The translations under genes and the position numbers were made by a program. Positions 3,331-41,190 of a DNA stretch of 41,190 bases are shown here, piece by piece (position 1 is the stretch's first letter; each line of letters starts with the position of its first letter). Origin of the DNA: Dimargaris cristalligena (taxonomy: Eukaryota). Location of the stretch: contig ML002330.1 of NCBI GenBank assembly GCA_003614675.1, positions 1-41,190 of the forward strand. Direction: 5' to 3'. The notes beneath the pieces are model-generated. The model made no database searches and was not told the origin of the DNA. It was given only the letters and a program-made list of their open reading frames with translations.

Positions 3331-5603
3331 AATTTAGAAATGAAATGAAATGTGATATGTATAATCAATGGTAAATGACGAAGGGATTGTAATGTTGATA
3401 GACGTGTAGCGCAGTAGAAAGGTGGGCTGAAAGAATAGATAGATTGATAGATATATGGCTATAGATGGATTATGAAAACCAATTGGAAATATACGGAGTT
3501 TATGAGAGTAAATGGTAGATGCTAAAGTGGAGACAGTGAGATGCGGCTATGCATTGCCTGAAGTATCTATCAGTGTAATTTTATGGAAATTGGGTTTAAA
3601 AGTTAGTGAAAATGGTCGACCAGAGGAATCTTTTTGGGTGATGAAAAGAGTGCGGATGCAAAAATGTCCAATGCGAGAGAGGTGTCAAGCGAACAAGCGG
3701 GGGAATAGAAGAAAGGGGGTGTGCAGTATGGAAAAGTGTAGAATGGAGAAATGCCTGTAATGGTGGGTAATGCGGGATGCCTTTCTATTTCATGCTCCAA
3801 AAGTCATGGACGTTTAATAGTAGAATACAAAAACAATAAGGGTGCAGAGAATAATAATGCTAATGGCAAAATAATAGGTGAAGAATAGGCGCAAAAGTCA
3901 CTAAAGTCGGCGAGCCGGCCGGCCTATATATATCTTTTAACTAATGAAAATGTCACACACCCAATTCACTACGACAGGGCAATGCGAATGTGTGGGTGTG
4001 GGGGGAGGGGTGTTTTTTTTTGGCAGCGGGGCACTGCGAAGGACACGGGCCAAACGAGGGGAGCAGTGGGACGAGACGAGGATTGGCCATCGGTGGAACG
4101 AACGGGCGGATGAAATACAAAGTGGTACCCAGATCCTAAGGACTCGGTCACAATAAACACAAGGGCGAATATTAAAATAATAGTAATGGAGGTAGGCTGG
4201 CGCGACAAGGGATAAAAATAAGCCCTCCTCCTCTTTCCTTCCCTTTCCCCCTCCCTGTTCGATCGACCATCGGCGGGCGGACTCTCGAACGGCAACAATC
4301 GGGGACCCGGTCGACCTTACGAACGGAACAACAATCGGGGCCCCGACTTGACATTATATAGTGGGGCCAGGGGGGACAATGACTCCTCCCCTCTTTTTAC
4401 TACTCTCCCTTCTCCTTTCCTATTTCCTCTCGCTATCGCCAATATATACGGTGCCTTTGTCTTGTTTTTATATTTATTCGTTGCTTCCTCTCTCGCTCTT
4501 TGTTGAGCTCCTCTTCTCTCTCCCCTCCTGTTTCCTCCCCCCTTTCCCTTGCCTCCGTCTCTCTCTCCCTCTAGTCCACTATCTCGTATCCCGAGGCCCC
4601 GAGTGATGCGATAGTCCCCTCGTCCCCACACTTTTTATATATGCCCACGGCCATTGTGGATCTTCCTTTGATATCCCCCTGCGGGTTCAATCCCCTCTTT
4701 TCCCCCCTTCTCCCTTTCCTTCACCGCCACGCTACCTCCCTATAGGGTTTTTAAGCGATTCCAATTTTTAGTGGAAAATGAGTTGTCCAGTTGAAGTCGA
4801 CCCAGCCATGTATTACAAGGTTATGGGTGTGAGGAAGAGGAAGGTGTCTCAAGGTAGCCTCGACCCGTCTTCCCTACCTCCTCTCCCTTCTAACCATAGT
4901 CGGGGTTAAGCCTGGGACTTCTCTGCCAGGTGCACAAAAGTAGAGTCACAGAGAGGGGCGACTGTCAACCGCCCGCCAACCGGGAATATTTGCGTTTCTC
5001 GTATGGTGTCTCTATTGAAATGATAGCACCTGCTCACGCGATACCATTTAAAGGCACTAGGGGCCTGCTTGTACCCGATCCTGCGGCAGTATCGCTCGTA
5101 TTTATCGCCGAATCAAGAGACATCCCTTACTCTCTCAATACTGTCCGTCTATATTTATTTACACTGATCCTACCAAGTGCCCTGTAGGCGTGGCATTTCA
5201 TAGTTAGACTAATCTAATCCCCCCAAATGCGAGATGCTGTACACCCTTTATTCCATTCAACCCATGAGGTCCTACCCTCCATGCCCATTCACATGCATCT
5301 CAAACACTTGCCAAAAATAGGTATTAAGTTTCAAAACTCGGTGGGATATCTTATAATATAACTGGTTTATAGTGATATTTGGGAATATTTTAAAAAAACT
5401 TATACCTATACTTAAAAAAATCCTACTACATTTTAAAAATCGTTCTATAACTGCACGCTATCACTATAGGGACGGTATCCGACTAGTGCTATAGGTTTGG
5501 CAGAATATACCCCGTAAAAGGCCGGGCGCACCGTATCAGATGAACTAATCCTACTGGGGTTAGGCCTTGTCGAAATGAGAGGATATACCAACCATTTCCT
5601 ACT

Positions 5604-6196
5604 CTAATTTCTACCATTGCGCATATTCAAATTGGGGCAATCGACTGACTCGAATTTTCCGGAGGGTGCCTGGAAGGCAGTGAGCCGACCCCCACTCACG
5701 CAGTTCGTATCGATACCAAAACTGTATCTAGATTCGGTAATCGTTTTCTTTCCGTCATGCCCGTATATCACTGTGACCCCATCACTATCCGCCTGGTTCA
5801 CTTGCGCGTGGCTAGCCTCCCATTCGTTCTGCCAATTCCGGTGGCTCGGGGTTTTTCTTTTGGGGTTGTTGAGGTTGGGCAACCAAGGTATATACATGGC
5901 AAAATCAGGGTCTTGTTCATGAATGGGGAGTCTGTAATCTATAGCAGCGTGGACGGCCACGTACGAACCATGCTCAGTAGGTAGCTGCAGGACCAAGGGA
6001 CAGGATTCCAAGTATGTCCATTCTTTTTCGGTTATTGACCTGGTGTCATGAATATAATTATAATATAATTTCAATGGTCAGCGTTGTGAGTTACTATGGT
6101 CATAGTTATGGGAGGTGTGTAGTCTATCCGTAATATTAAAATATAGCAGGGGTTATCCATATTTAAAAGAAAAGATCCCTAAGCAATAGTTCCTCT

Positions 6197-6234
<38 letters not shown>

Positions 6235-6944
6235 CAGAGTGTTGGTATATATCACATTTTTACTTACCGCTCCAATTGATAAATCAAGCCTGGCGACTTA
6301 AGATTGATTTCTCCTTTCCTACGTTTCTCACGAATCTGAAACAGGATATCTTCGTGGTTTCCCCGCACGCAGTGGGCTTTATATTCCTTGGCCAAGGCCA
6401 ACACCTCGTGTGACTTGGGGCCCTTGTTAACCATATCGCCCAAAAGTATAAGGCGGTTTTCCAGAGGATTGAAATTGAGTTCATCCAGTTATACCTGCAA
6501 GGGATCGGCCATACCATGCACATCGCCTATAAAAATGTAACGTGCAACCATGGGTTCCTAGGGGAGTCTCTGGTAAAGTTGAACGGATTGGCCCCAGTGT
6601 GCTAGGACACGACCTTCCGGCGGAGTCAAGGCCGGGTCAAGCGCACTGGCAATGGCCAGGTGCTGGGGCACCTTTTTGGCTTTGGAGGCAATCGTCTCCC
6701 AGCCATCATTATCGTCGCCAGTGGTACCGGTATTAGTTGGATTCCAGTCGATATCCCTCTAACCATCCGAGTCCGGGGAGCCGGATTCGTCGTCGGTGTC
6801 GCCCATGGATAAAGCGGCAAAACTATTCATGGGAATACTCGGCACGTTGGCTCTCTTTACACCGTAGGTGGGTGGCAAGGCGCTCACTGAAATAGACGAC
6901 CAGGCCAATGCGGCAGCCAAAACGGAGAGTCGGACGGTGTACAT
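5604..6944 (-). pseudogene. Signal-peptide calcineurin-like metallophosphoesterase (Ppn2/YNL217W / ApaH-like) with three in-frame stops
   Basis: One frame from ATG 6944 (MYTVRLSVLAAALAWSSISVSA, signal-like) through RYIFIGDVHG, LILLGDMVNKGP and VRGNHED. Intron 6267-6040 (GTAAGT...CAG). Exon 2 has VAVHAA, VIYGHD and GIDTNCVSGGRLTA. In-frame TAG at 6759-6761, TAG at 6558-6560 and TAA at 6489-6491. Confidence 0.75.
6197..6234. repeat. Compound (TA)n(GA)n microsatellite inside the phosphoesterase intron
   Basis: tatatatatatatatata followed by gagagagagagagagagaga. Confidence 0.9.
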
Positions 6945-8846
6945 GGTTAATGTGTTGCTGTAAGGGATAGTTATAGGGGGAGGAAAATACGTGAAATACC
7001 GGGAGATTGGCCAATCGTATAGGCTAATGCCAAGAAGACGGGTCCGTGGGACGTGTGATTAGAAAAAAAAACGGCGGAGCGTTAGGGTACCCTTCAATGA
7101 TCGGTATATTAAAGTGGCCTGGAATAGGGGGGGAGGGATGGGCTTGGAGTTAGGGAATATAGGCAGGGAAGTGAGGGCGGTGGCGGATAGCGAGCCTTTT
7201 TATAATGCGTGGTCTCAAAATATAATTGGTGAGTTGGCCCACTGTGGTAGACATGGTACAGATGGGTTCCCTCAACAAGGCCATGGCTACATCTTTGGCC
7301 AATACCACTGGGTTGGTGGCACATTGTAATACATTTCCCCCTCACCCCCTTTTTGTGAGTAACGACGAGAGTGCCCAAGTCATTAATGGGATAATGAATG
7401 CATCGTGCAGCTAAACCACTGGATATTGGGTTTGGCGGGATATTCACGTCCTCCGGTAGTTTCGTTTTCCTGGCCAAATCTTATGTTAGGATGTCCTCTT
7501 AATTGTTTTGCGGAATAGGCCAGGATAATCAACCGAAATACATTGGTCATAGCCGGGTATGGAACAGACAGGGGTTTCAAAGTAATAATGCAGCTCCGAG
7601 GCATAGACATAGGGTCGACAAGTTATTTAAACCATGCTTTCGAAATACGGACACCCCCTCCTCCTCGTCGAAAGATAAGTCGTCCAATTCCGAATAAAAG
7701 GACGGTCCAATTAGATTGAGTCTGACATTCATTTTTATTGGCAGTAGTAACCTAGTAGGACATGCAGATAATTTATTTTAGCTAGACTGTGGGCCCCAGG
7801 GAAGAATATACAGAATTGCGTACGTATAGTTTTGAACTAACGGTAGTGTAGAGTAGAAGGTTTAAGGGCCCCCTCCCATAAAAGGTATGTGGTACGGAAT
7901 TATACCTTCGGTGTATGTGCCTACAAAATACGGAGGGTATAGCCGCGAATCACATCCATTGAAGCGAACGTTGGTGAGGGTGGGCTTCGTCCCAGTTAGT
8001 TGATGTCGTCGGATTAGTAGTGGTGAAGCTTACGGCCGGCCGGAGGGATGTCGAGCAGGTATAGCGACAAAAATTGTGGCGTGTGTGTGGGGGGGGGGAG
8101 GTACACTTAGCTGGCCTAAACTCAGAGGGACTAATTGGCCATGGCGTAGGTTGAAGCTAAGCTTCAATATCGAGAAATAGAGAGGGTCGGGGGTAATGGA
8201 ATTTTCAATCCCGAGGGATAGTAGTGGTATTTTGCACCAAATGGTTACATGGTATCCCTATAAATAAGACCAATGAACTTTAGAGTACTGGCCCCGCCGA
8301 CAGGTGTGTTATATTGCGCTTATCTGTTGCCGCCTGGCTCTCGTCCCCATGGTATCCGTATGATATACGGGGGTTTGCGGCCACTTGTGCCCCCTCCACA
8401 GTAAAGGGTGGTGACGACATAATTGTTGCACTTGCCCCGGGACAGTCAATATAGTGCGCCTAGGGTTTGATTAGTAATGAATGCTGGGAAAAGGGGAAAG
8501 TTATCTGATGGGGGAACTAAATCAAGCCAATGGAAACCACGCCCAGCGTGTTCCCTTCTAAGCATATTATGCGAGGGAAGGGGTTATTTGCCACTTACTT
8601 CTCTTACTTTCTCTCTTTCGGCTACTACTCCCCCTCCCTACCAGTCCCCACTATATTCTTTAATATTTTGTTCCCCCCATTTGTTTCTTTCAGTTCTGTA
8701 TCCGGCCTTGGCTTTTCTGTTTACCGCATCTAGCCCTTAGCCCCGTTGCATTGCGCTATCCCCCTTTCGTTTTCCCCTTCACGTCTGTCCATTATCCCCA
8801 TTACTCGTTTGTTTGTTCGTTTATCCTAGCTTCCATATTACCAACC

Positions 8847-10012
8847 ATGTCCGACGGTGCCGACGCCCTTATCGAGCGGCTCAAGACCGTTAAACACATT
8901 TGGCTCGTTCTCTCGGGTAAAGGTGGGGTAGGCAAGTCCTCCGTCAGTACTCAGTTGGCCCTCTCCCTTTACAATGCCGGCCAGCGCGTGGGGATTCTGG
9001 ACATTGACCTGTGCGGCCCTAGTATTCCCCGCATGCTCGGGGTCGAAAACCAACCGGTACGCCAGGCCTCCTCCGGCTGGGTACCCGTGTACGTCGACCA
9101 GTCCGAACAACGCCTGTGTTGCATGTCCATTGCGTTTTTGCTCGCGAATAAGGACGACTCGGTCGTGTGGCGGGGTCCCAAGAAAAGCGCCATGATTAAA
9201 CAGTTCTTGTCCGACGTTATGTGGGGCGACCTCGACTACCTCATTATTGATACACCACCGGGTAAGTCAATGTTTATTTATTCGGTGCTCGTTGGGAGGG
9301 GTGGGTTATTGGTATTGGTAAGCCTCGTGAGTCAAAACTACCAGCCCCATTTAACCCGCCCCGGTTCTCCCCACCCGGCTTTTCATTAATTTACGCGATA
9401 TCAGCCGACCTTTCCCGTTATTTGCACCCACTCACCCCTCGCATTCCCCCTATTCCTTTATATTCCAAACTACCTTTAGGCACATCCGACGAACATATCT
9501 CCATTGTCGAATTCCTTCGGGCCGTCAACCCCGACGGTGCGGTCCTCGTCACCACCCCCCAGAATGTGGCCTTGGCTGATGTCCGCAAAGAACTCAACTT
9601 CTGCCGCAAAGTACGCCTGCCCATCCTGGGAGTCATTGAAAACATGAGTGGGTACATTTGTCCACACTGTGCCGACTGCACCAACGTATTCTCGTCGGGC
9701 GGTGGCGAAAAAATGGCCGAGGAATTTAACATTCCTTTCCTGGGTCGGGTGCCCATTGATCCTAGTCTTACCCTAATGCTCGAAGCGGGCCAAGCCAATG
9801 ACTTTAACGGCGTGGACGGGGTGACTGAAACAGGCGAACAACAACAACAACAACATTCGTCACCGAATAAGGGACCGGAACGGGAGGCATCTCCTCCTCC
9901 TCTCCCCCAGGTGCCTTCGCTACCCGAGCGGTTCTTGAAATCACAATTAGCACCCGTCTTCGCCGAAATTACACAAAAACTTATTGCCCAGCAACCGAAA
10001 TCATCTGACTAA
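8847..10012 (+). CDS. CFD1: Cytosolic Fe-S cluster assembly factor CFD1/NUBP2 (2 exons: 8847-9261, 9480-10012)
   Basis: [11 protein letters not shown] deviant Walker [19 protein letters not shown], spliced DTPPG|TSDEH across a GTAAGT...TAG intron, [16 protein letters not shown]. It lacks the N-terminal Cys cluster of Nbp35. Confidence 0.92.
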
Positions 10013-11820
10013 ACTGCGGAGCTGGCTACTTTTTTTTTTTAGATAACAAAAATAGGTTTTTACATGTATCCACCATCACCAAAACATTATCCACACTCCA
10101 CTTGAATTTTGGGCCTACTTTATATTCGCTATACCTACATCCTAAACAATGAAAAGTTTATCACTGTAATCCTTCACTTGCATTGCCCTCGTATCCCCAT
10201 AGCAGTGTTTATTCCTTTTGAGTATCTTGTCTTGGGTTTAGAGATTCTGACAAATAAAGTGGAGCGCGCTGTTAGTTTAGTAAAGACCTTGTCTAATAAT
10301 TGGATTGTACCCTTCGGTAATTTAGAAAGACCAGTTAGTTAGACACGGTGGATGCGTCTATTTAATGGCCAATCATCTCCATGTATTAGGGGAGGTGGGC
10401 AATAGAGCTACATTATGCGCTCAAAGCAAATATTATTGACATTGATGGTAGATGCCAACCCAAAACTATTCCCAAATGTATCCCCTATTCCGGTTATACG
10501 ACGCCTGGGGTACAACTAGAGTTGAGTTTCCAATAGTGAGTGGTAGGTATTTGTATTTTAAAGCCTAAATATCGTATTGATGAACGGCTAGACTGGGCTG
10601 AGGTTGTTTTAAATGCCTTTCTGAACCTCATACAGTTCCCCAACTGGAGTTGAATTTGGCGTTCCTATTAATTGCATTAATCCACCAAGATTTACCGATA
10701 CCCACAATCATAACTATTGTAAGCACACATTAGTTGGTCTGTCCCCTCTCCATTTTTAAATAATAATCCAACTCCTCGAATATAGAACTACATTTCCCAT
10801 CCCCCACTTCTGGCTATCTTATTCATTGTTACTAATGTCTCGATTCCCAAAAGTTCTTCTGTTGACCCATTAATTTATAAATAGCCTCTCCCACTTGAGC
10901 CTTATATATCGCCGATATTCCTCTTTTACTAGCTAGGGTCATGATAGGACGACTCAATATTTGGTATAGTAGACTTAGGAATGAGGATGCGGGACTAGGT
11001 TTCCCCTTCAGGATGGTCTGGCGTCTATATAGCGGGCCACCGGCTCACAGGAAGGGAAGGGGTGCTCCACATATCCGAAGGATTGGCCCTAAGAATGATA
11101 AACTACATGCCCGGTGGATACCATCGGAGAATACTAACGAGTGTTGAAGAACACGGAAAATGCCTTTGGAAATAAGGATGATTATTCGGAGAATTAGTAG
11201 TGCTTAAGGATTTATCACTAAATATTCAATAATTTATTTTTCCTTAGTGTAATTTATGTTCATCTTTAATGTATAAAATGGTTACACTGGTGGTATTAGC
11301 CGTTTACATGAACAAACTAATATATTAATAAAATGTGATTGTGCAAAATCCCAGCTATATATCTTGCCTGTGGAAATGTTTGACTACATAGTGCAAAACG
11401 GGGGGAAAACTCACCCCAATGATAAAATTATCTAGTGTTAGTGCCTCTTGAGTATGACAAGGCCACATCCCCCAAGGTAATTAAACCCAGGGACCCCACC
11501 AGATTTGATAGAGGTAGGTTGTCAGCTAAGGTTGCAGATTGAGTCACGCCTAGTCTCTTGATAATAAGTTGTTGAAGAATATATTCCTACATATTCTTTA
11601 TCATGTCCTGTTTCACCCAATTATGTTAGTTTATTCTGCTATTATAAGATCATTTATATTAGCCACTTATGTTTCACCCTATCAAAATTACAGTTCAATA
11701 AAACTAGCCACCTAGAGGCACTTACTGTCCTCTAGCTACTTTTTACCCTTACTTCCAGTTTTATTTTCTTTATATCCTTAGTATTCCAATAACTTTCATC
11801 AGGCAGGGGTAGACCAGTCT

Positions 11821-12532
11821 CCTATAATGTAAATGACCAGTGGCTCAACAAGACTGATGCACAGATGGGAACATTGACCTAGTCAGTATTACAGTATGTG
11901 TAACATGGTTTGTGTGTTGTAAGGAGGTGGAATGGGCTGTTTAGCCACCTGCTTACTCCCAGCTTTGGTCCCAGCTACCATGATACCATGGGCTTCTATG
12001 CTAAATAGTACTTTTATAGTTCTGTGGATAAGCCAAGAGAAGTTTCAGGAGGGGCTGTATTATATCTATTCTTGATTTCAGGCTACGTTAGTGTGCTAGG
12101 TTAAAAACAGTTGGGGTTACAATTGTTATTAGACTGAAGGGTGGTTTATATGGATGTGGGCCACATTTAGAAGGGGTCTATTTTGAAAAATAGTTTTGCT
12201 ATACCTAACCCTATAATGGTAATATCTCTGTATAGGGCTTATAGGAGGGTACCAATAGATGGGTTCCAAGGGTCCAGTGTTTCAATAGAGAGGTGATCTG
12301 GTGACAACCAATGAGCAAACATGCATATTTTGCTTTCAGCAATAGTATAGATTACCCCCATTCCTTCAGCTTTCTTTGCCAGTTCTTTATTTTGATTATA
12401 AATTCCCTCCTGTGTTATTAACAGCAGGATATATCTAAATACCTGTAGTTGTGGTACAGTTAGGGTAATACTATGAGACTTATTTTGATAGTAGCCAATA
12501 GAGTTAACAATATGGGAAAGGTTCAGCCAGAC
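11821..12532 (+). repeat. Dispersed ~700 bp repeat, copy A (CpG-depleted, hypermutated)
   Basis: Colinear with 23511-24260, with shared anchors such as gacctagtc, tttcaggct, aaaaacag, tgtatagggct, gacaaccaa.gagcaaac, ttttgattat, tgtggtacagtt and gagttaacaatatg. Confidence 0.85.
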
Positions 12533-12634
12533 TGTATAATGATAAATCCATTGGATGAGGCAAAAACCACTGGTTAATAATGGATCTCTCATATGTTTTC
12601 CCATGCACATATTATCCAAAACCTTATACATCTA

Positions 12635-13226
12635 CACTGAATTATACATGCTGGCCCTCCTAATCTAACCTAAATCCAGACTTAATGATTGTCCACCCTT
12701 AGTAGGCCTTATAACACCATATTAACCCTCCTATAGTCACCCTCAGTACTATGTAATTGTCATTTATTATATAACCCTTCTCCTTCCGGCCCCAATGCTT
12801 CACAAAAAATCACTCAACCTGCTGATCCAAAGACTCTTCCAGTTCCCATGAGAGTTTTCCAGATATAAAGCCCATCTGGTTGGTCTGTAATATAGTTTAG
12901 TAGTATCTCCCCTTGGGACCTCCCTCTGGAGCTGTCCCTGTGTATATATAACTAGGCCCCATCATAGACTAGTTCAATTCCTTAGCTTATTCATATCCCC
13001 TAGTTTACCTCAATAAACTCTATATACACCTACCCCCCCTTTGTACTAACTAGTAAGTGTGCCTGCTGCACATCCCTTGTATATACCTGCACTTATCCTT
13101 TATTGGGTTAGTACAGTGCCCCATCTTAATGCTAGTAGCCCGCTTTACTGAGTCTAAGCCCTGCCTACTATTAGAAGCCTATCCCTGGGACTCTTGATGG
13201 ACTAAGAGTGGTTAACTTGGGTGACA
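12635..13226 (+). repeat. Left arm of long inverted repeat; LTR-like
   Basis: Reverse-complement match to 18640-19246 along its length; 13165-13212 vs 18654-18701 is 46/48 identical. Contains TATATATAA (12943-12951) and AATAAA (13012-13017), and ends GGGTGACA at 13226. Confidence 0.85.
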
Positions 13227-16200
13227 GTAGCATAATAGTAGTGCTAAATAGTAGATATAAAAGAGTGAGCCAAGTGATTTCAGGGCTCTCTAGGTCTAAT
13301 AAGGGATCAAATATATATACATTCCTACTGCTGAAATACAATTCTGCTAAGGCAAGGGCATAATAGACCTGTGCACTATTAATTAAAAGTAGTGTAGGTT
13401 CAGTTGGGCTCTAGCTGGATATGAATTTCAGACTAATACCAGAGCTACTAGTTTTAGCCATAGTGTATTGGGTAGACTCTGTATTGTAGCTAGTTACAGT
13501 GGTACCACAAGTTAGTATCTTGATTAATTTAGTATTCTTAGAGAAGTGGATTGAGTACTCATCAGGAAAAGTGTTTGGGAGCCATACTGCATGTACCTTA
13601 GTTATTTCTAAACATTGGGTTATCTGTTTAATAGTCCTGGTATATGACTGAACTACTAGGCATATATTAATTTTGATTTCTACTACTAGACATATAAATA
13701 ACTAGATAATGTCTCCCATAAGGGCCATGATAGTTAGCAGGTAACCTAATACTATACTGCTAGTGCATAGTATAAGGGAATCAGCCAGATGGTTGAGCTG
13801 TCTAACTGATAGTATTAGATCATTGCCCTGGTAAACTAAATGGTCTGGATAGTTATGAACAATACTATCCCAAACTTGAGCCAGAGACTGAGAGCTTAGG
13901 ACAGATGAGGGATTGCAAACACTGGGGGTCCAGCCATTAGTTGATAGCTGTACTAATGGGTTACTAAGAGTAAATCAATCAACTGGAGTCTGGGGATCAC
14001 ACACTAATATTTATTCTAGAACTACCTGTATCATTTCCACTAGCTGGGTTATTGCAATCTCTGAGTATACAGTATTAATGTAAGACATTCTGACTTGGAT
14101 AGAGGAGGGCAGGTCCACAAAATTGACAGTTAGAGGATAGTGAGTAAACCCATGGATAATAATATCTGATAGAGCAATTTTGGGGAATTGGCTAGAAACT
14201 AGGTCAGGGAAGTTCTCAAAGCCCAGGAGTGTATGGAAAAGAGGGCCTGTCTAGCCTAATCCATTCCACTGGGAAATATCAGTAAGTTGAGAGTGTTCAA
14301 AAGGAATCATGTCTACTTGGTCCTTATGGAGAGATTGTAGCTATGGCTCAAAAGGAGAACTGTTTAGGCAAACCCTATATGGTACTATATTAGTACAGGG
14401 TCCAATAACTTGGTCTATAGCAGGGATATTTAAATTTTGACCTGATAGAATTATACCAAAAGTCACATCATCCTGGTTAAGTAGCCGGCCAAAAACTACA
14501 GCATAAGCAGCCCGGAATAGGGTTGCTATTGATATACCTAGAGTTTGAGTAGATTGGAGTAATTGGGCTTTAGAAATATTGAGTGGTGTTGAATATGATG
14601 CATAACCAGGTATACCAATATAGTCTGGGTATAACAGAGGGGCTGGTGTAACTATTGCATTGTGTAGGTAGTTGGTCCAAAATACCCATGCTAATGTGGG
14701 ATCTGATTGTTATATATATTTAACTATAGTTGGGAAGCTAGTCTGGGGTGGGGATACAGCCAATTTGGGATTGTGGTAGGCTACTATCCACTCTTGGAGG
14801 AGCAAGGGTAATGACCAGCCATCCATTAATGAGTGGTGGATAGTAATAATGGTATCATGGACTAGATTATCAGTAGTAGGAAATACATGATTGCAAATCA
14901 TATGTTCTTGGAGGGTAAATCCCTGTTGCTGGTTCTTAATAAAAAATGTCTCAAGAGAATCAAGAGGCTGTTCCGCAATAGTCCAGGAAGTAGGTAAGGA
15001 GGATATCACCACTTGGAGGAATCCTTGGGATAAAGTATTGGGTGATTCAAGGAAAAGTGTGCACAGAGGGGAATATTGGTTATCTACAGAGGCCCAGGCC
15101 TGGACCAGTCAATCAGGATCCAGTTGACCAGTTATTTTCATTGCCATTTGGACAAGATATGTTGATGGGTCTGAAGCTAGGTTCATAAGGCCACCCTGGA
15201 CTGCAATACAGGGTAATATATCTTCAACTTGGGCCAAGGGAATACCTCGTTGGTGGATTTGGGCAAGGATATTCTGGAACCCAGTATCAGAAATAGACAG
15301 ATGCAGAAAGTCATATTTAGTGAGAATAGATTCAGGTATCATATTGTCTAACTGTGCACTTATACCAGTAAGCTCAGTCAGATTATGATGCCAACTGGAC
15401 ATAATCTTGATAATACTATCCTTGTAGTAAACCCGGGGGTTATACTCCATAATCAATTGGAGACAGTCACCAACCATTGTAGGCATGGGGTTGAGATCAA
15501 AAATGACAAAGTCCTGAGATGAAAAATTATGTAGTCCAAAGGAATTAGACCATTCAATAGATAGTGGATTACCACTCAGGGGAGTACCTGGGTTGGTAAA
15601 TTGACCAAAGTAATTGAATTGAACATCCATTCTCTTAGGTGTCTTAGCTATCAGTTTACTCCTCTCATCAGTATTGACACCTGGCATGTATTTGATTACT
15701 GAGTAAATGAATCCTTTGCCTGGAATTTTCTGTAAGGCTTCCTTAGTGTACTGTAATAGCTCTAAGAGGGACTGTCCTTGGCGAATTTGGATTACTAAGG
15801 GATAGAGGGAGGTAAACCAACCTACAGTACAAGTGATATTTTGATCAGCAGCCCAGGGTTCCCGACCATGACCCTCCATACAGAATTATATCTGGTTAAC
15901 ACCAATGGTAGTAGAAAAGGCGTGTGCAAATGTGGCCAGTAGTAAATCTTGAAGGGTAACTCGCCATTGGGGGGCTAGCTGGAATAGAAGAGTGTTGGTA
16001 GACTTAGCATCAAAATCCAAAGACACAGAGAGGCGGGCTACAGGGTAATCCTCAATACTGATCTCTGGTGGCGGTAGTAGAGAGTAGATATCGGGGATTG
16101 GGTGGTTGGGATCCATCTGTGTAGGCCAAATGTCTGCGGAGAGAGTACTGCAGTAATCAGCCAATTGGGTAGCCCAGGTTTGGAACGACATTGTCTTTGG

Positions 16201-18639
16201 TGGAAGGGGTTTGCTAAGCAATAGTGAATTTAAATCCTCAATGAGTATCCTCCAGGAAACTAAGTCTACCAGAATATGGTAAATAGTGAAGAAGAATTGG
16301 GTATTGAGTAGGTCAGCTGGGTTGTGGATAAGTGCTGCAGCAACTACTGGGCCAGTAATTAGATTGAGACTCAATTGGACTTCTAGAATAAAGGCCAAAT
16401 AGTCATCAGGGTCCAGGGTATTCTCCAATACCAGAAGATCAGTGTTTGTGGCTATTTTGGTAGGGATTGACTGAGTACATTTCTGTCCATTTTTACCAAG
16501 TTGGAACCTTGCCCAGAGAATATCATGGTGGTTAAATAAGGCAATAAGAGCATCAGTGAGAGTGGATTGGGATAGGGGGAAATAGGGACCAGCCTTGAAA
16601 GAAAATGGTTGGTTGAAATAACAGGGATTTTTAAAGTGAAGATCAGCAAACCAGTGCTGAATGGGGGTGAGAGCTACATCCCCTGTAACTTGGCCCTGGC
16701 AAGAAAAACCAGTGTCCAAAATGGTACTGGTTTCTTGCTGGATGTACAGAACCTGTTGATTTAGTTTAGGGTACTGGTAGATCAAAGGGACAGTAATCTG
16801 GTAACCCAATGGCTGATACTTGGATACAAGTAGAATGGCCAAGATTGAATCTCCACCAATCCTGAAGAAATAGTCCAAAGGTCTAATTTGATCTACAGTC
16901 TTCTGCAGTACCTGGGCCCAGGCCTGTTGGAAGCTGTGTCCAATACTATTCAGTAGTTGATCTTCTAAATCACTTGGGGATGGTTGGTCTAAAAGGTGGT
17001 TGATTGGTGGAAGGGCTTTATGATCTAGGTTGGTTGGGTAGGCATACAGACAAGGGTATCCTGTACTATCTTTACCACACAATTTTTCAGCCCAGTAAAA
17101 CAGCCTACAACATGTTCTATTTCCTTGAGCTCAATGCAAAACTCACACAGTTTAACTTGGTTGTCAATCTGGCCCAGGAATTCAATTATGCCTTTGGGGA
17201 GCCATTGAACATGATTGCCGGTCTAGTAAACTTTCCCAGGACCATGGGGATTATCAATGAACTTAGTGTGGGTTAGTTCGGGTAGGTTTTGGTAACCGCG
17301 GGCAAGACCAATTCCCCCAATAAGCAACTCACCAGGGACACCCACCAGCACCAATTGAAGCTGGCCATCCACCACTAGGTTGGTTGCATTTTGAAGAAGC
17401 CGGCCAATTGATATGTTAGAATTTGGGTCAATGGTAGTTGTATTGCATATCACAGTTGTTTCAATTAGTCCATATTCATTAATTAGGGTACAATGCCTGG
17501 CCCATTGCATATGCAATTCCACTGTAACAGACTCACCACCAACTATAACAGTCTTCAGATTTGGAAATTTAGCAGGATTAAGTTGAGACAAGAATGATGG
17601 GATTATGATGGCTGTATCAATACTCTGTAAGGACTCAACCAAATTTTCAGTAGTAACTACCACAGTGCCCCCAGTACAAAGCCCATGCAGCAGTTCTAAC
17701 ACTAATGCATCGAATGTAATGGACATCATTAGTAGTACTCAGTGGCTTTTGCGATATATATCCATTATGGTCAGGTTTGTGATAAGGTTGGTTACACTTT
17801 GGTGCTCAGTAAGTACTCCCTTGGGATGGCTGGTAGTACCAGAAGTGTAGACAATATAGACAAGGTTTCATTGGGCCAATGGGTGTGGTAGGAAATCAGA
17901 TAGATCTGTGTCTGGTGGCAATATTGTGAAAGGATCAGCCACCAACATGGGAATATGGGATTGAGGTGGTATCCTTCCAAGGGTCGATTCAGTAACAAGT
18001 GCTAATAACATACTACTATCTCCTAGGATATAATTGATATGGTCAACTGGTTATTCTAGGTCTATGGACACATAAGCTGTGCCAAATTTGAGTACCACCA
18101 GTAGAGTAATAATGTAAGTAAATGATTTGGGAATGAGTAGGGCAAACTGAGTCTCAGGCTGGGCACCATGCTGAGTAATGAGAAAACAAGCAAGCTTAGA
18201 ACTGCAATTGTCCAGCTGGCAGTAGGTCCACTCATCAGGACCATGGGTGACTACAATATTATAGGGTACTAATTGAGCCTGGTCACTGAAAATACAGTAT
18301 ACAGGCTTGTCTAAACACTCAATTGGGTCAGTCATGTGGGAGAAGATGATTAGATGTGACCATTCTTGTTTGCTAACCCAGGGAATATCATGGATTAATG
18401 TTGGCAGTTGACTGGGATTTTTCATGTTCTAGGCCTGAACTACCACACCAATAACTGTGCCAAATTGGCTGGAAAACTCCTCTACAGTAGAGGCCTGGTA
18501 GGTATTGCAGGAATAGGTAATATTCAGCATTGAAGAACCACCTGTCAGGCTTAAATCAACTAACAACTTGACTCCCATTGTGGTCAAAAGGAAAAATAGA
18601 AAACCCTCAGCATTAGTATTGGTAAAATGGTTAGAACTT
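13227..18639 (-). pseudogene. Non-ribosomal peptide synthetase fragment, partial C - A - T - E - C - degenerate A
   Basis: A domain: YIVYTSGTTSHPKGV, GGESV, NEYGLIETTV, GELLIGGIGLARGY, Y*TGN, GQIDNQVKLCEFCIEL. T domain: FFRIGGDSI. E domain: PIQHWF, YHILVDLVSW, EGHGRE, TVGWFTSLYP, FNYFGQF. C domain: HHSLMDGWS. Many stops (e.g. 18429, 18051, 17223, 15886, 15109) and a frameshift plus deletion near 17050. No introns seen. Confidence 0.93.
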
Positions 18640-19246
18640 TGTTACCTGGGTTCACCACTCTTAGTCCATCAAGAGTCCCGAGGATAGGCTTCTAATAGTA
18701 GATGGGGCTCAGGTTCAGCCAAGTGGGTCCTAACATTAGGTGGGGGCACAGTACTAACCAATAAAGGTTTAGGTAATTAGTTATATAAGGGACATGCAGT
18801 GGGCACACTTACAGGTCAGTATAAGGGGGGTGAGCATATATAGAGTTTATTGGAGTAAACTAGGGGGGTCAAAATAAGCTGAGGAATTGAACTAGTCCTA
18901 ATGGGGCCTGGTTATATATATATGGGGGGTAACCCCAGAGGGAGGACCCAGGGGAAGAATACTACTAAGACTAAGGTATAGTAAATAAGCTAACCAGACA
19001 GCTGTTAGGACCTGGAAGACTCTGATAATAACTGAAAGAGTCTTTGGATCAGTACTTGAGTGATTAGTGTGAAGAGGTGGAGTCCAGAAGGGGAAAGGCT
19101 ATATGATATAGGATATAGGCTGATCCCATAGTACTGGGGGTAGTCATGGGAAGGTTAATATGGTACCATATGGCCTAATAGGGGTGGGTACTAATGTGTA
19201 TAGATTAAGGCAGATTAGATGATCTGACAATTGTATAATTTTAGTG
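18640..19246 (-). repeat. Right arm of long inverted repeat; LTR-like
   Basis: On the minus strand it shows the same order of TATATATAA, AATAAA and terminal CCAGGTAACA (plus strand tgttacctgg at 18640). The outer boundary is approximate. Confidence 0.85.
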
Positions 19247-20593
19247 GGTTGCTAGTTGGTTAGGCCCTAATATTGATTTTGGGTTGCCTTAAGTGCCAAT
19301 ATATGTGCATACAGTGTGAATAATATTGAGTAATATTATAGAAATATAATCATTTATTGCCAATGGAACTAGTTGGTTAGTGGCAAACACTAAGTCAGTC
19401 CCCGCCACAATATATTGCCCCAGAATTTTGGGGAAATGCATAGGACAGGCAGCACTTGCTTTAGTACCATGGCTTATCTAACTACAACAGGACGGGGTTA
19501 CCTGTATGGGCCTATTTGAGGGCAAATTAGCCTCCCACTTTGATACTTCCACCAGGTCCCCAAATGCCCTTCACGTGATGAACCCATCTTTCTAAATAAA
19601 TGGGTAGCTATTTGACGTCCCTATTTTAATACAACGAATATCTTATCATGAGATTAACATATTGTATTATAAACCCCTGTTATTTAGCGCTTCGGTCTGT
19701 TGGGAATAACAAATTCATGTATTAGTATTACCATGTGAAAAGAACAAGGCTGTTGGAGGTTGGCAGGTATCTCTAGTAGGTTAGCATTATTGAATAATAT
19801 GGTCAACAGTGTATATTTAAATATTAAAATGAATGGCTAGAACCTCTCGATTGATGTCTCTCCCACATGCCTATTAGCTCCCTGCCTCTAGTGCATGTAT
19901 ATCATTATTGATTAGATAATATACCAACAATAAATCGAAGTGAAATGAGACTCCTATCTTTTATTTACTGTTAATATATATATATATATATATTACCTAA
20001 CATGAATGGGCGCAACCTTTATTAAGAAGAACCCAGAAAATATGAATACAAGAGATAGAACCCGTGGTTGAAGGATCTACTAACAGCTTTGGAATTCCTC
20101 TGTTTTATGGATATTCAATCCATTTAAAAAATCATCAACCACTAATTATATATTAACCCATATAGTTGATGGGCTTAGTTATTCTGTAATGGGAGTAGTG
20201 TAGAGTTCAGTAATTAGAGAATGGGTTTTCATTAAGGCCAGTCTTTGTGTACTAGACTGGGTGGAATTCGGCCCAACTGTATAAGGTTTTCAATAATACG
20301 TGTATGGGAAAATAGGCGGGATATTATTTTTCACCCAGCAATCTATGTCCCACACCATCCAATGGATGTGTCGTTTTTTTTAGCCTGGTTGTGAGCCTCT
20401 TCCATGTTAGCTTCCACATTAACTACCGAGCACACCCTTTTCCTTATTTCACCCGCTAAATCCTGCGCGACGCGTTCATGCCTTCCCTCAATTAGCATCT
20501 GGTCACTCCAATCGACTCATTTACTTTATCCATCGTTGAATTTTTAAGCCAACTGCGCTCGCCCAGCACATTATCTAGTCCATCCGTAATACC

Positions 20594-22729
20594 ATGTCGG
20601 CATTTCCCAAGGAAATCATCAAGGTATCTAACCCTTCCCCCTAATGTGCCGCTCCATTAACCATACATCGCTCCTGGGCATCTCATTATGACCCGATTTT
20701 AACAGAGCGAGGTGCCTATTATATTAGACGTCACTCATAAAGGGTATGCCGAAGCGCCCACATTATGGCTAGCTAACGAATATCCAAAGCTGCTGGCATA
20801 TATTATATATAATCAATGAATACCTGGAACACCCCCTTAGAATATATCCGAATCCATCGGTATCCTCAATTTAAAGGATGAAGTAGCCACCGCACTTTCC
20901 CAGGATGTAGAGTACCGAATCTACGAAATTATACAGGTTAGTCGCCTTTCTATTTGTTTGTTGCTTTCGCTATGCATGCGTGATTATCGCCCACCACCAG
21001 CCAACACACCTCGATTTAGTTTCGCGACCCTGCGCCCCCCGCCCATGGGTATCTAAACTAAGATTGTATCTTAATCGGCTATGCCCAAATTACTCATTTC
21101 CCCATCCTAGGAAGCCGCCAAGTTTATGCGGCACTCTAAGCGAACCAAATTACTAACTGAGGATATCGACTATGCTCTCCGGGCCCGAAATGTCGAAGTA
21201 AGTAATGCTTTCCTTTAAAGAATTAGAGTATTTTTATTTAACGTGTATTAATAAATGGCAGGATCACTAGACGGCTCATTGCCTGGCTAGATTATTTAAA
21301 TTTAAGGGGGCCCGAAACAAACCCATGCCCATGTTCTTTTGACTCACTTGCTTTTTTTTTACACATTTTACAACTTCACTATCCCTAGCCCCTATACGGC
21401 CATGGAGCCTTCGGAGAAACCACCTTCAAGAAAGTCAGTGCCCTTGCGGAAGACATTTACGTAGTCGAGGACGAGGAGTTTGATTTTGAAAAACTCTTGA
21501 GCACACCCCTCCCCCCCGCCCCCCGGGACACTTGCTATACAGCCCATTGGCTCGCGGTGGAGGGAGTCCAACCCCTGATTAGACAAAACCCGGCCCCGAA
21601 CCCCGAGTCCACCGAACCGGTTTCCAAGAAACCCCGGGCCGCCACCACCACCATCAACAACAACAACAATGCCCTCCCGGAGGCCAGTGCCCAGAGCTCA
21701 GCTACTGCCACGGTACCGGTGAAGTTGGTACTTTCCAAAGAGCTGCAACTCTACTACGAACGTCTTACCGAGGCCCTGCTGGCGGATAATGATTTACTCC
21801 GCTCTACAGCCCTGGATAGTTTGGCGGTGGACCCGGGGATCCACCAACTGATTCCCTACTTCACCCAATTTATTGCCCACCAAGTGACCCACCACTTAAA
21901 GGACCTGCGCCTGTTAACGACCATGGTCCTCGCGGCCCGGGCCCTCCTGAGTAACCCGCGGGTGTTTATGGAGCCCTACCTACACCAACTGATGCCGGCC
22001 CTACTCACTTGTCTGGTGGGTAAGCGGTTGGGGGGTGGTGGTCCGACCCCAGCATCCGCCACCGTTGACGCTAACCAGATGGACGAGGACACCCCTCACG
22101 AAGCCTCAGCTCTCTCGCATTGGGCCCTGCGGGACACCGCCGCCGAAGTCGTGGCCCGGGTCTGTTTGGACTACGGCCCGGCCTACCATACCCTCCAGCA
22201 GCGGGTCACGCGCACGCTCCTGCGGGCCTTTTTGGATCCCACCAAGCCGTTGGCCACCCACTACGGAGCCCTGGTAGGCCTGACCCGCCTGGGTGCCCCG
22301 GTGGTGAAATTGCTCATCTTACCCAACATTAAGGCTTACTCGGCCCTCCTCCTCGCCCCTTCGGCCAAGGAGGAGCGGCAGAGCGAAGGAGAGGGAGTGG
22401 CTTATCGAGCGCCAATGGCGGGCCCGGGCACGGCTGAGGAACGGGAAAAATGTTGGAATTGTCTGGTGGACGCCGTCGAGTCGATACAGGACGAAGGGGG
22501 AGATACCACTAACCCCACGGGGTCGTCGGCCCCGGCCATGATCTCCGCCACCCAAAATCAACTGCTGGAACAATATTTCGGCCCCGAAATGGCTAGGCGA
22601 CTGGTCGCCCGGCATAGTGCTTGGTCGGCTATTCCGGTGGCGTTGCAGGTGATGCAGAATGGCCCAGTAGGGGGTGGTCCCGCTGCATCGTCGGCGACCG
22701 CACCGCCGCCGGTGGTCAATGGGGTTTGA
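20594..22729 (+). CDS. TAF6: TFIID/SAGA subunit TAF6 (4 exons: 20594-20623, 20841-20936, 21111-21197, 21389-22729)
   Basis: Spliced histone fold MSAFPKEIIK|NISESIGILNLKDEVATALSQDVEYRIYEIIQ|EAAKFMRHSKRTKLLTEDIDYALRARNVE|PLYG, then TAHWLAVEGVQP, LSKELQLYY, DPGIHQLIPYF, EPYLHQLMPALLTCLVGKRL and HWALRD. All introns are GT-AG and keep frame. Confidence 0.95.
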
Positions 22730-23510
22730 GTGCTACAACCCTAGGCGAGGGAAGAAACTGGGCCAGCCCATCCATGCATAATAATAGAAATCAGGCAACT
22801 GCGTAATAAATTCATTGCTATTGTAGGTACCTCGGAAAACACATTGGTACAATCCTCGATTTAATGATGCCCCGGTCTACCTACCTACAGCTGGAATCAC
22901 TCATGTGAAGTACTATAGCAGCATGTGGCCCAGGGTTACATGGGTCGACATAATTCGTTGGTGGGCGTTTTCCTTTTTATACACATATACTAAATTGGCT
23001 GGCGACATGGGCATCATTCCGACCACTTTTGGCAGAACTGCCCCCCTGGTAATAGCCGAATTCGCTGAAGAAAGTATTAGTATAATTGCACCGTATACCC
23101 TTCAACATCCCCCCTTCACACCATCGACTGTAACCCTTGTGGTAGGCTATGGGGCAAAATGTGATTCAAAGGGAACACTGTTAGTGGTATGGCTTCCTGG
23201 CCCAATGGTCTAGATTTGTTGGTGATATTGATCAAGTTAAGCATTATCTACAAAAGGCTTAATCGGTATGGCCCTATGGAGGTGCATTGCTTTTCGGAAT
23301 GGTAGGCGCATTTCAGCATTAGGCTGGAAGTGCTGGGAACATGTGCAGAGGCCAGAAGTAGGACCATTTGAACAAAATCCAAAAAGAAGAAACTGGAAAG
23401 AGTGATACCGAATGGTCCTCGGTCAGAGAAAGCCCCCTTCCACAGCCCTCTATGGACCAACTGCACCATTTTCCGGATGCGTGGAGCACCCAAGGGCCGC
23501 TTAGCCATCA

Positions 23511-24260
23511 CCTATTCGTAATGACAGGTGGTTTAACGAGACGGGTACACAGGTGGCAAAAGTCGACCTAGTCGGTGTTGCCGTATGTCCTACGTAGTTT
23601 GCATGTTGTGAGGGAGCGGAATGGTCGGTTCAGCTCCCCCTGCTCGCTCGCAGCTTGGGGGTCCCGGCAACCGTGATGACATGAGGTTCCATACCCAATG
23701 GGTCTTTTATGGCTCCGTGACTCGGCCAAGAGAGGTTCCACGGGAAAGAATGCAATAGTCACATTAGCCATTTCAGGCTGCGCTAGTGTGCGGGGTCAAA
23801 AACAGCTGGGGCTACAATGGTTGGAGCGAAGGGCGGTTTATATCCCTGGGCGCTGCGTCTTGAAGTGGTCTAGTTTCCAATACAATTATGCGGTGTTTAA
23901 GCTTGTCACTGCATTAGTCCTGTATAGGGCTGACTAGAACTATGCAAGTGGGTGGACTCCAAGGATCTAGTGGTTCAACAGAGAGAGATGTTCGAGCGAC
24001 AACCAACGAGCAAACTTGTGCCCATTTTGTCTCCAGCGGTAGTATAGATAGCCCCCCTTCCCCTCCAGTGTTCTTTGCCGGCTCTCTATTTTGATTATGA
24101 ATTCCCTTTCGCGTTACTAACGGCCGGATATATCCAAACACCCGCGGCTGTGGTACAGTTGGGGCAATACTAAGAGATTTGTTTCGATAGCAGCCAACGG
24201 AGTTAACAATATGTCTTTGGATGACTAGATAATATACTATGGGTTGGTTTAGCAATAGAC
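23511..24260 (+). repeat. Dispersed ~700 bp repeat, copy B (CpG-rich)
   Basis: Direct, colinear homolog of 11821-12532. Frequent 1-2 bp indels between the copies argue against a conserved ORF. Confidence 0.85.
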
Positions 24261-24897
24261 CTCCTCCATTAGGATTAATTCACCCCTAGGAATACAGTTC
24301 TCCCGATGAGACTTACTATTAGCAGTTATATACGGACGCACACCCTATTAGTTTTTGGATATGAATAACCCAGGGTTCATACAAGTATGCCAACCAAGCG
24401 AGTGAATACATCCCCCCTGCTGTCTCGCCTATGATTACACAATGTGTCGAATCGGGTGCTCCATGGAAATAACTCTTCTTTTTTCCGTTGGTAAATAACG
24501 GCAGATGAGTATTAGCCCGGCCTTGGTTGTCATTACCTGAGCCGCCAGCACCAACCCAAATGTAATTCTACGCCCCTCTCCCCTAATAGCTTGTCCTCAC
24601 TAAACCGCGTGGTGGTGGATTACACGTACTACCATCGAGGATGGGTGTCGGTTAAGTTAGAGTGACCCAACCCTACCACGGGCAACTCTTAAGTTCTATT
24701 CCGCTGCATTCTGGCCCGACCGACCACTATCGATTGGGGTGGCCGCCAAGTTTCAGGCCACCCGCCTGGCTATTTGCGGCAGGTACTGCCGTCAACTTAA
24801 CCCGCCCTAGCAGAACATAATTATATCCCCCCACTTGAAGCCCCTACCATCTTCATTGAACAAGCGCATCCCAGCCATACTGTAGACACTGCCCCAC

Positions 24898-24905
24898 TAT
24901 AAAAG
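24898..24905 (+). promoter_or_regulatory. TATA box of the small secreted peptide gene
   Basis: TATAAAAG, 144 bp upstream of the ATG at 25042. Confidence 0.55.
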
Positions 24906-25041
24906 GACCGACGATGCCCGCTCGGTTAACGATAACTCACCTACCAGTCACGATTAGAATCACCCCGCTTTTTACACCCAGCCCTGTCGATCACCAGTGA
25001 ATATCCCAGCATCCCCTACTTCAATACCAGCCATTACTACC

Positions 25042-40465: not shown

Positions 40466-41190
40466 ATGTCTCAGTATTCCACCATCCCCACTAGTAGCGT
40501 GACCCAAATTTTCTCCGTACCTGCCGTGTTCCATCCAAAGGTGAAGTTACCTTTAGGCCGGCCCAACCGAGACCTACACGACATTGATACCTACCAGCAC
40601 CAACTTTTATCGGAACCCATCCACCCTTGTCTGGAACTTAACTCCAACAAAGTGGCTAGGGTCAGTCTAGCCATTTTGCTAAGTCGGTATTACAGCCAAT
40701 CGGAGGTGGCGTTTGGCTACACCACTGGACCCCTCAGTGATACTTACTCCGCTGATGCCCCGTTAGTCTGGGCGTTATTTAATGTAGTCCCTGAGGCCGA
40801 GGTTGCGTCGCTGGTTCGCTTCTGCAACGACATAAGTGTTGGCCATTCCGATGGCATTGCTGAATCACCCCCGCCTCCTGAGGTGATCCTGCATTGTAAT
40901 CTGTCCGCTGCATCCAACCTGTCCACCAATAGCACCCCAGCCGGTTCTATCCATTTTACCGACATCATGTCTGAGGGCATTCTATCCACACTCTTGATTA
41001 CGGCGGGAGTCGGGTTGCTGGTTGAGTTAAGTATTCCGAATGGTTCTGCAATGCTGAGTATCACCTATTCCCGAAATGTCTATCCGGACCCCTGCTGTAG
41101 AAGAGTTTGCCAACCAATTTGACACGGTCCTGAGGGCGGTAGCTCGGGCCTGGACCATGAAAGATCCTAATCGACCACCGACATTAGTCC
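40466..41190 (+). CDS. NRPS 5' end (N-terminal partial condensation-like domain) with a +1 frameshift near 41090; runs off the window
   Basis: LPLGRP, LAILLSRYYSQSEVAFG and LSITYSRNVY...VEEFANQF resemble the C-terminal lobe of a C domain. 40944-41190 aligns at DNA level with the minus strand of 18393-18637, which leads directly into an A domain. Confidence 0.8.

Follow-up and report, generated by a model that had tools for sequence, protein, structure and literature searches.

CpG depletion of a repeat nest around a nonribosomal peptide synthetase pseudogene in Dimargaris cristalligena, a probable scar of cytosine methylation

What process strips almost every CpG dinucleotide from one block of a fungal genome and leaves the adjoining genes CpG-rich? 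The block in question lies within a stretch of 41,190 nucleotides (nt) of Dimargaris cristalligena DNA (contig ML002330.1 of assembly GCA_003614675.1, positions 1 to 41,190; hereafter the window), and it holds high-copy repeats together with the decayed remains of a nonribosomal peptide synthetase (NRPS) gene, which we call the relic. A preliminary description made from the letters alone had proposed a probable early-diverging fungal host, and the source, D. cristalligena of the Zoopagomycota, agrees with this. It had proposed two mechanisms for the block, a genome defense resembling repeat-induced point mutation (RIP) and the decay of 5-methylcytosine (5mC). We find that the second fits the data and that the first is not needed. 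The explanation that we favor, and consider likely, is deamination of 5mC at CpG sites in a methylated repeat nest, laid over ordinary AT-biased decay.

Extent of the CpG-depleted island

CpGs are dense up to position 11187. Past this point lie isolated CpGs (11301, 11399, 11547, 12086, 12787, 13141, 14486, and a few others to 18679); from 19403 on their spacing is still sparse, and high density returns at 20269. The bounds are as sharp as first described, and the limits at 11187 and 20269 therefore set the island at about 11200-20260 (Table 1). An estimate by eye of some 30 CpGs in about 8 kb came close to the exact count of 29 in 11300-19400 (observed/expected ratio, o/e, 0.087), where GC is 0.408 and GpC o/e is 0.81. 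The entire 41,190-nt window has 1586 CpGs, and the neighboring DNA is CpG-rich as had been stated, with o/e of 0.59-1.10 in 1-kb flank bins and about 0.83 over both flanks.

The depletion also holds against DNA of matched GC, a check named beforehand. All 17 of the 500-bp windows inside the island fall below all 21 GC-matched windows outside it (median CpG o/e 0.06 and maximum 0.46 inside, median 0.94 and minimum 0.57 outside; Mann-Whitney U=0, p=1.7e-7). GpC is unaffected (o/e 0.83 in the island vs 0.84-0.96 in the flanks), and CA/TG is in excess, with an o/e of 1.15 for the island and 1.23 for the relic, whereas the flanks have 0.96-0.98. At 0.40, island GC is at the level of local intergenic DNA (0.36-0.42). 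Approximately 87-90% of the CpGs of the block have gone to TpG/CpA, including those of low-copy stretches and of a few hundred margin bases: the interval 13142-14485 has no CpG although its depth is only 1.3-2x, and the unique margin 11200-11598 is likewise depleted. The residual island CpGs are preceded by C (14), G (9), T (9), and A (8), with no visible trinucleotide preference.

A truncated NRPS gene between inverted repeats

As had been proposed, the block consists of repeats and a duplicated NRPS gene, based on contig depth, homolog matches, and tblastn. Five D. cristalligena NRPSs (P0001-P0005) used in tblastn covered 1794 relic codons in two frames only. Pieces of the relic's open reading frames (ORFs) match the Pfam families AMP-binding (PF00501), PP-binding (PF00550), and Condensation (PF00668), and the NRPS domain order is kept, the relic being collinear with P0004 and P0005. 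It has no intact reading frame and no intact core motifs, and both of its ends are cut by repeats. About 109 N-terminal residues are missing relative to P0005 and the missing parts were not found beyond the repeats, so the gene was truncated as well as mutated. It does not follow that mutation was what inactivated the gene, as the repeat termini that cut both ends would be enough alone to kill it. The relic has 22 CpGs in 5390 bp (o/e 0.10), and its GC content at third codon positions (GC3) is 0.38-0.40 vs 0.55-0.71 in intact genes.

Copy number was read from contigs of four DNA runs aligned to 5001-25000 at a likeness of at least 80%, with depth summed per run. In run X5 the flanks are single-copy (depth about 170-189), and relic bins have depths of 336-980, equivalent to about 2-5 copies. 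Depth climbs to 51,320 over 11004-13671 and drops from 37,829 to 6,361 over 18341-20341. Position 11598 is the end point of unique contigs in all four runs, and many other genomic copies end at 13226 and many begin at 18640, as seen from loose contig ends.

The two repeat blocks face each other across the relic. By blastn, 12693-13216 and the reverse complement of 18650-19187 share 76.5% identity; inverted arms (18640-19187 vs 12693-13226, among arms I1-I8 that were found) end exactly at 13226 and 18640, and there is an outer inverted pair (20265-20338 vs 12570-12643). The two island copies of the inverted pair contain 2 and 1 CpGs. Both inner ends, at 13226 and 18640, read ...ACA toward the relic, and from these termini we tentatively take both blocks to be long terminal repeat (LTR)-like. 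A Pfam scan of the repeat-block ORFs matched no family, and a search for tandem repeats found none. In other copies, short joints link repeat ends (13226 to about 20258), although the sides of these joints are only 27-29 letters long. Perhaps the NRPS fragment did not decay in place and was instead captured, or relocated, along with the repeats.

The best homologs of the relic are NRPSs of D. cristalligena itself (P0001 at 79% identity, the others at 50-54%), followed by Tieghemiomyces and then by cyanobacterial NRPSs at about 31% identity. We rejected a foreign origin of the block because these nearest relatives are the species' own NRPSs. For 15886-17130 (minus strand), the nearest NRPSs beyond Dimargaritales are cyanobacterial (Microcoleus, Fischerella, and Nostoc; about 30-33%) and not those of Dikarya, and this NRPS family may be of bacterial origin.

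CpG sites changed faster than other sites

Arginine codons give the clearest view of what happened to the relic. In intact window genes nearly all Arg codons are CGN. Conserved Arg was kept at 16 of 62 sites, whereas the remaining residues taken together were kept at 768 of 1048 (Fisher p=7e-14), and the changed Arg sites include 25 that became Q/H (CGN>CAN) and 12 that became C/W/stop (CGN>TGN). The same context appears in the rates at individual codon positions. First-position G>A occurred at 11 of 21 sites after C, at 13 of 65 after A, 19 of 127 after T, and 4 of 60 after G; second-position C>T occurred at 8 of 10 sites before G, at 9 of 67 before A, 7 of 73 before T, and 2 of 63 before C. 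Reverse transitions occurred at rates of 1.7-3%. We estimate that the rate of change at CpG sites was about 7 times that at the remaining C/G sites, and it is this ratio, with the TpG and CpA gain (o/e 1.15-1.23), that makes 5mC decay fit.

A repeat outside the island serves as a natural control. The CpG-rich relative at 23520-24213, which is at single-copy depth and sits between TAF6 and a zf-C2HC ORF, has 34 aligned CpGs, and 33 of them are lost in the island copy at 11832-12514 (11 to TG, 9 to CA, 3 to TA, and the rest through transversions).

Substitutions outside CpG are also common, as had been stated. For the 127 C>T/G>A replacements of the relic, 52 have a CpG that is still visible and the other 75 do not (39 now TpA, 25 CpT-type, and 11 CpC-type). 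Outside CpG, transitions of the GC>AT type outnumber those of the AT>GC type by 75:27, and transversions do so by 33:12 (G>T 12 and C>A 21 vs A>C 8 and T>G 4); in the repeat pair the two ratios are about 64:31 and 27:11. Because cytosine deamination cannot produce transversions, this equal AT bias is not specific to deamination and is a general AT drift of a GC3-rich gene. The non-CpG substitutions look like ordinary AT-biased neutral decay.

Polarized transitions and the case for a RIP-like mutator

The leading alternative is that a RIP-like, duplication-sensing mutator with CpG preference, acting outside Dikarya, struck the repeats and the duplicated NRPS copy, either once or in a small number of episodes. 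We consider this unlikely. One point in its favor is the polarization of the changes, which the preliminary description had noted and which three comparisons bear out. The first was made with a consensus ancestor and covered 1110 codons, of which 326 were changed (230 resolved and 96 not); the resolved changes are G>A 81, C>T 46, T>C 14, A>G 13, and 76 transversions, an excess of C>T/G>A over reverse transitions of 127:27. Both strands are affected, as claimed, since G>A and C>T are both frequent on the coding strand of the relic. Against P0001, its closest intact paralog, 195 of 933 aligned codons differ and 145 are resolved (29 have multiple changes and 21 are ambiguous), with G>A 41, C>T 32, T>C 15, A>G 12, and 45 transversions. 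Four outgroups polarized these differences into 71 derived in the window, 24 derived in P0001, and 100 unpolarized, and the 58 resolved window-derived changes comprise 37 C>T/G>A, 7 reverse, and 14 transversions (37:7). Finally, in the repeat pair (73% identity), the differences of the island copy 11832-12514 from the outside copy 23520-24213 amount to C>T 48, G>A 42, T>C 13, A>G 18, and 61 transversions (90:31). Change counts per run in X5 (A>G 241, T>C 234, C>T 174, G>A 213, and 354 transversions) are saturated in the high-copy repeats and were set aside.

Other properties of the block also agree with such a mutator. The affected DNA is duplicated by contig depth, the relic decayed through point mutations (its 1794 codons hold 14 stops and 1 frameshift), the bounds of the island are sharp, and TpA-type changes are frequent (39 of 127). 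A cautious hint of RIP has been given for the zoopagomycete Zoophthora in the cited part of one study (PMC11105155).

The composition of the spectrum argues the other way. The motif changes first read from the relic were confirmed against P0001 (YRTGD to Y*TGN, GRPL to GRLL, HH to YH, and GRIDNQVKLRGFRIEL in the paralog to GQIDNQVKLCEFCIEL in the relic), and for these quoted motifs it is right that they changed almost only by transitions. For the whole gene it is not, as 76 of the 230 resolved replacements are transversions and at least 4 of the 14 in-frame stops require one. Classical RIP of the Neurospora type, with its RID-type methyltransferase and its activity during the sexual phase, yields transitions in vast excess over transversions and in strand-coordinated runs. 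Here transitions outnumber transversions by only about 2:1 throughout (154:76 in the relic, 84:42 in the inverted pair, and 121:61 in the repeat pair).

Classical RIP index thresholds call for CpA+TpG depletion and TpA gain. Here the test for CpA+TpG depletion is negative: (CpA+TpG)/(ApC+GpT) reaches 1.21 for the island and 1.27 for the relic, above the 1.05-1.12 of the flanks, and TpA/ApT is 0.98-1.20 (0.98 in the relic) vs 0.93 in the flanks. Rates at CpA-type and CpT-type sites are similar, and C>T and G>A are randomly interspersed along the relic, with 59 runs vs 59.7 +/- 5.3 expected, so strand clustering was not found. The AT bias outside CpG is, as described above, the same in transitions and transversions. 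With an index of 1.21-1.27, this ratio of about 2:1, the equal non-CpG bias, and the expected number of runs, the RIP-like half of the original proposal is not needed. In the cited part of a kingdom-wide screen, RIP-like signatures were seen in ascomycetes only (PMC12543289). The more specific proposal, that a duplication-triggered RIP-like mutator preferring CpG over CpA/CpT knocked out a recent NRPS duplicate along with the repeats on either side, we regard as quite unlikely.

Orthologous contigs of run X5 provide a view of recent change. Among the differences listed, there are 4 in about 4.6 kb of the island and 16 in about 11 kb of the flanks, so the island is no more divergent than its surroundings, which also counts against a RIP-like mutator. 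CpG<->TpG/CpA changes make up 3 of the 4 island differences (17521, 17712, and 19304) and 1 of the 16 listed for the flanks (Fisher p=0.013); the numbers are small, and the contig record over 20003-25000 is counted with 9 of its 11 differences. There are hints that the island CpGs are still unusually mutable, and a burst of other changes is not seen.

Remaining alternatives

The CpG poverty may have been inherited, the repeats having spread from CpG-poor master copies or from a CpG-poor donor, with the island just holding copies. Many genomic copies are 90-99% like those of the window, and the inverted pair has few CpGs in either of its island copies, as this explanation would have it. It leaves the NRPS relic unexplained, however: the nearest paralog has Arg where the relic has Q/H/C/W/stop, and the closest relatives of the relic are the species' own NRPSs. 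There is also a CpG-rich relative of the repeat 10 kb away, and the unique margins are depleted too. We find it very unlikely.

That no special process is needed, and that this is old neutral DNA under the ordinary mutation spectrum of the genome, agrees with the ordinary non-CpG changes and the intergenic level of GC but is scarcely credible, as GC-matched non-coding DNA in the window retains a CpG o/e of 0.57-1.2 vs the island median of 0.06 and Arg codons decayed far faster than all other codons. Editing of retroelement cDNA by a deaminase was rejected because both strands are affected and the relic is not a retroelement.

Probable methylation decay in a repeat nest

Under the favored explanation of 5mC decay, the island is a silenced repeat nest in which a truncated paralog from the NRPS family of D. 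cristalligena lies between two inverted LTR-like copies of a high-copy family, their termini pointing inward. The block would be, or would long have been, CpG-methylated by a cytosine methyltransferase of the maintenance type, such as DNMT1, DNMT5, or Dim-2, that is directed to repeats or heterochromatin, and spontaneous deamination of 5mC would account for a rate of CpG transitions about 7 times that of the remaining C/G transitions. With repeat truncation and the loss of selection, the NRPS copy may have drifted from a GC3 of at least 0.55 to 0.39.

Systems of this kind are reported from other fungi. In Phycomyces, 5mC is described as almost exclusively in repeats, as it is in Linderina pennispora, a kickxellomycete of the Zoopagomycota (cited sections of PMC11258239), and methylation is also confined to repeats in most Basidiomycota (as stated in part of PMC13297926). 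Kickxellales have CDCA7F, which according to the cited portion of one report is nearly always accompanied by DNMT1 (10.1101/2023.01.30.526367). The Dimargaris island resembles these methylated repeats in its region-limited CpG loss, its TpG/CpA gain, and its effect on both strands; embedded or silent genes are covered, there is slight spread into unique margins, and neighboring housekeeping genes retain their CpGs. It differs in that it is known from sequence alone and that its lineage is described as 5mC-poor overall.

Likeness to RIP is less complete. The island shares with the RID-dependent RIP of Neurospora and other Pezizomycotina its sharp limits, the polarized C>T/G>A changes in duplicated DNA, and an abundance of stops alongside few indels. 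Unlike in Neurospora, the target is CpG and not CpA, CpA+TpG is in excess, transitions exceed transversions only about 2:1, and there are no strand runs; and the host, unlike those of the Pezizomycotina, is outside Dikarya. A RIP-like hypermutation of basidiomycete transposons in CpG context was reportedly described in Microbotryum by Hood et al. in 2005. The island is like that system in its CpG-centered C>T changes in repeats, which cannot be separated from methylation decay by sequence alone, and unlike it in that no trinucleotide preference is visible, with 33 of 34 CpGs lost in any context.

A number of points weigh against methylation decay. According to the cited sections, Zoopagomycota have little 5mC (PMC11258239), and early-diverging fungi have levels that are near-undetectable (PMC13297926). 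Overall, C>T/G>A changes exceed the reverse 4.7x (127:27), and the implied equilibrium GC of about 0.25 is below intergenic GC. Indels are few in the relic (one frameshift vs 326 changed codons), and as duplicated DNA (2-5x depth) it would also be a target for a duplication-triggered mutator. Its spectrum was read from replacement sites only, the paralogs being at the protein level, and we count this limit on the same side. Changes to stop codons, moreover, are below the missense rate: Q>stop occurred at 1 of 61 sites and W>stop at 1 of 23, in comparison with 8 of 32 for H>Y (p=0.0007).

H>Y and Q>stop share the CpA context. Selection may have kept stops out of the relic copy during part of its decay.

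Features of the window

The coordinates of the features are given in Table 1. The flanks carry housekeeping genes (SPRY, NBP35-like, TAF6, and PQ-loop). At 40466-41189 (plus strand) there is the N-terminus of another NRPS, which appears intact and continues past the end of the window; it corresponds to the initial 180-236 residues of P0003 and P0005 and has a GC of 0.51 and a CpG o/e of 0.70.

A public D. cristalligena gene model of 622 residues (P0121), annotated as a condensation domain-containing protein, maps to 18578-18444 and 16962-15112 on the minus strand, within the relic. The model treats the stop-ridden adenylation domain as a 1.5-kb intron and is therefore likely an annotation artefact.

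Table 1. Positions of the island, the relic, and the associated repeats in the window (HSP, high-scoring segment pair)
Feature	Position	Strand	Details
CpG-depleted island	11200..20260		40 CpGs in 9061 bp, o/e 0.11, GC 0.402; flanks 0.83 each
Island core	~11550-19400		
Partly depleted margins of the island	11200-11600 and 19400-20260		
Left high-copy non-coding repeat block	11600..13226		X5 depth 3,573-51,320; 3 CpGs in 1627 bp; terminus ...GGTGACA at 13226
NRPS pseudogene (relic), A-T-C-C	13231..18620	-	14 in-frame stops, one frameshift
Sole frameshift of the relic, frame -2 to frame -1	17028..17049	-	HSP ends of all five homologs meet
Right high-copy repeat block	18640..20338		X5 depth 37,829 to 6,361; terminus ...GGTAACA at 18640
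CpG-rich relative of the island repeat 11832-12514	23520..24213	+	72-73% identity, depth 1x, outside the island, natural control

Implications

Zoopagomycota have been described as 5mC-poor and 6mA-rich (6mA, N6-methyladenine), and RIP-like signatures have been reported from ascomycetes only. Our literature searches on such CpG decay found no paper for Dimargaritales. A RIP-like mutator in D. cristalligena, if true, would be the first well-founded genome defense of its kind outside Dikarya. The CpG loss in the island is probably the mark that cytosine methylation usually leaves on silenced repeats, rather than the sign of a new mutator.

D. cristalligena is noted for its many NRPS genes, and a public gene model built on a pseudogene inflates the NRPS counts of this species. 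As for the biology of the lineage, a scar of CpG decay in Dimargaritales would be indirect evidence that CpG methylation of repeats acted there and may still act. It would also suggest, again indirectly, that methylation can reach duplicated secondary-metabolite genes caught in repeat nests.

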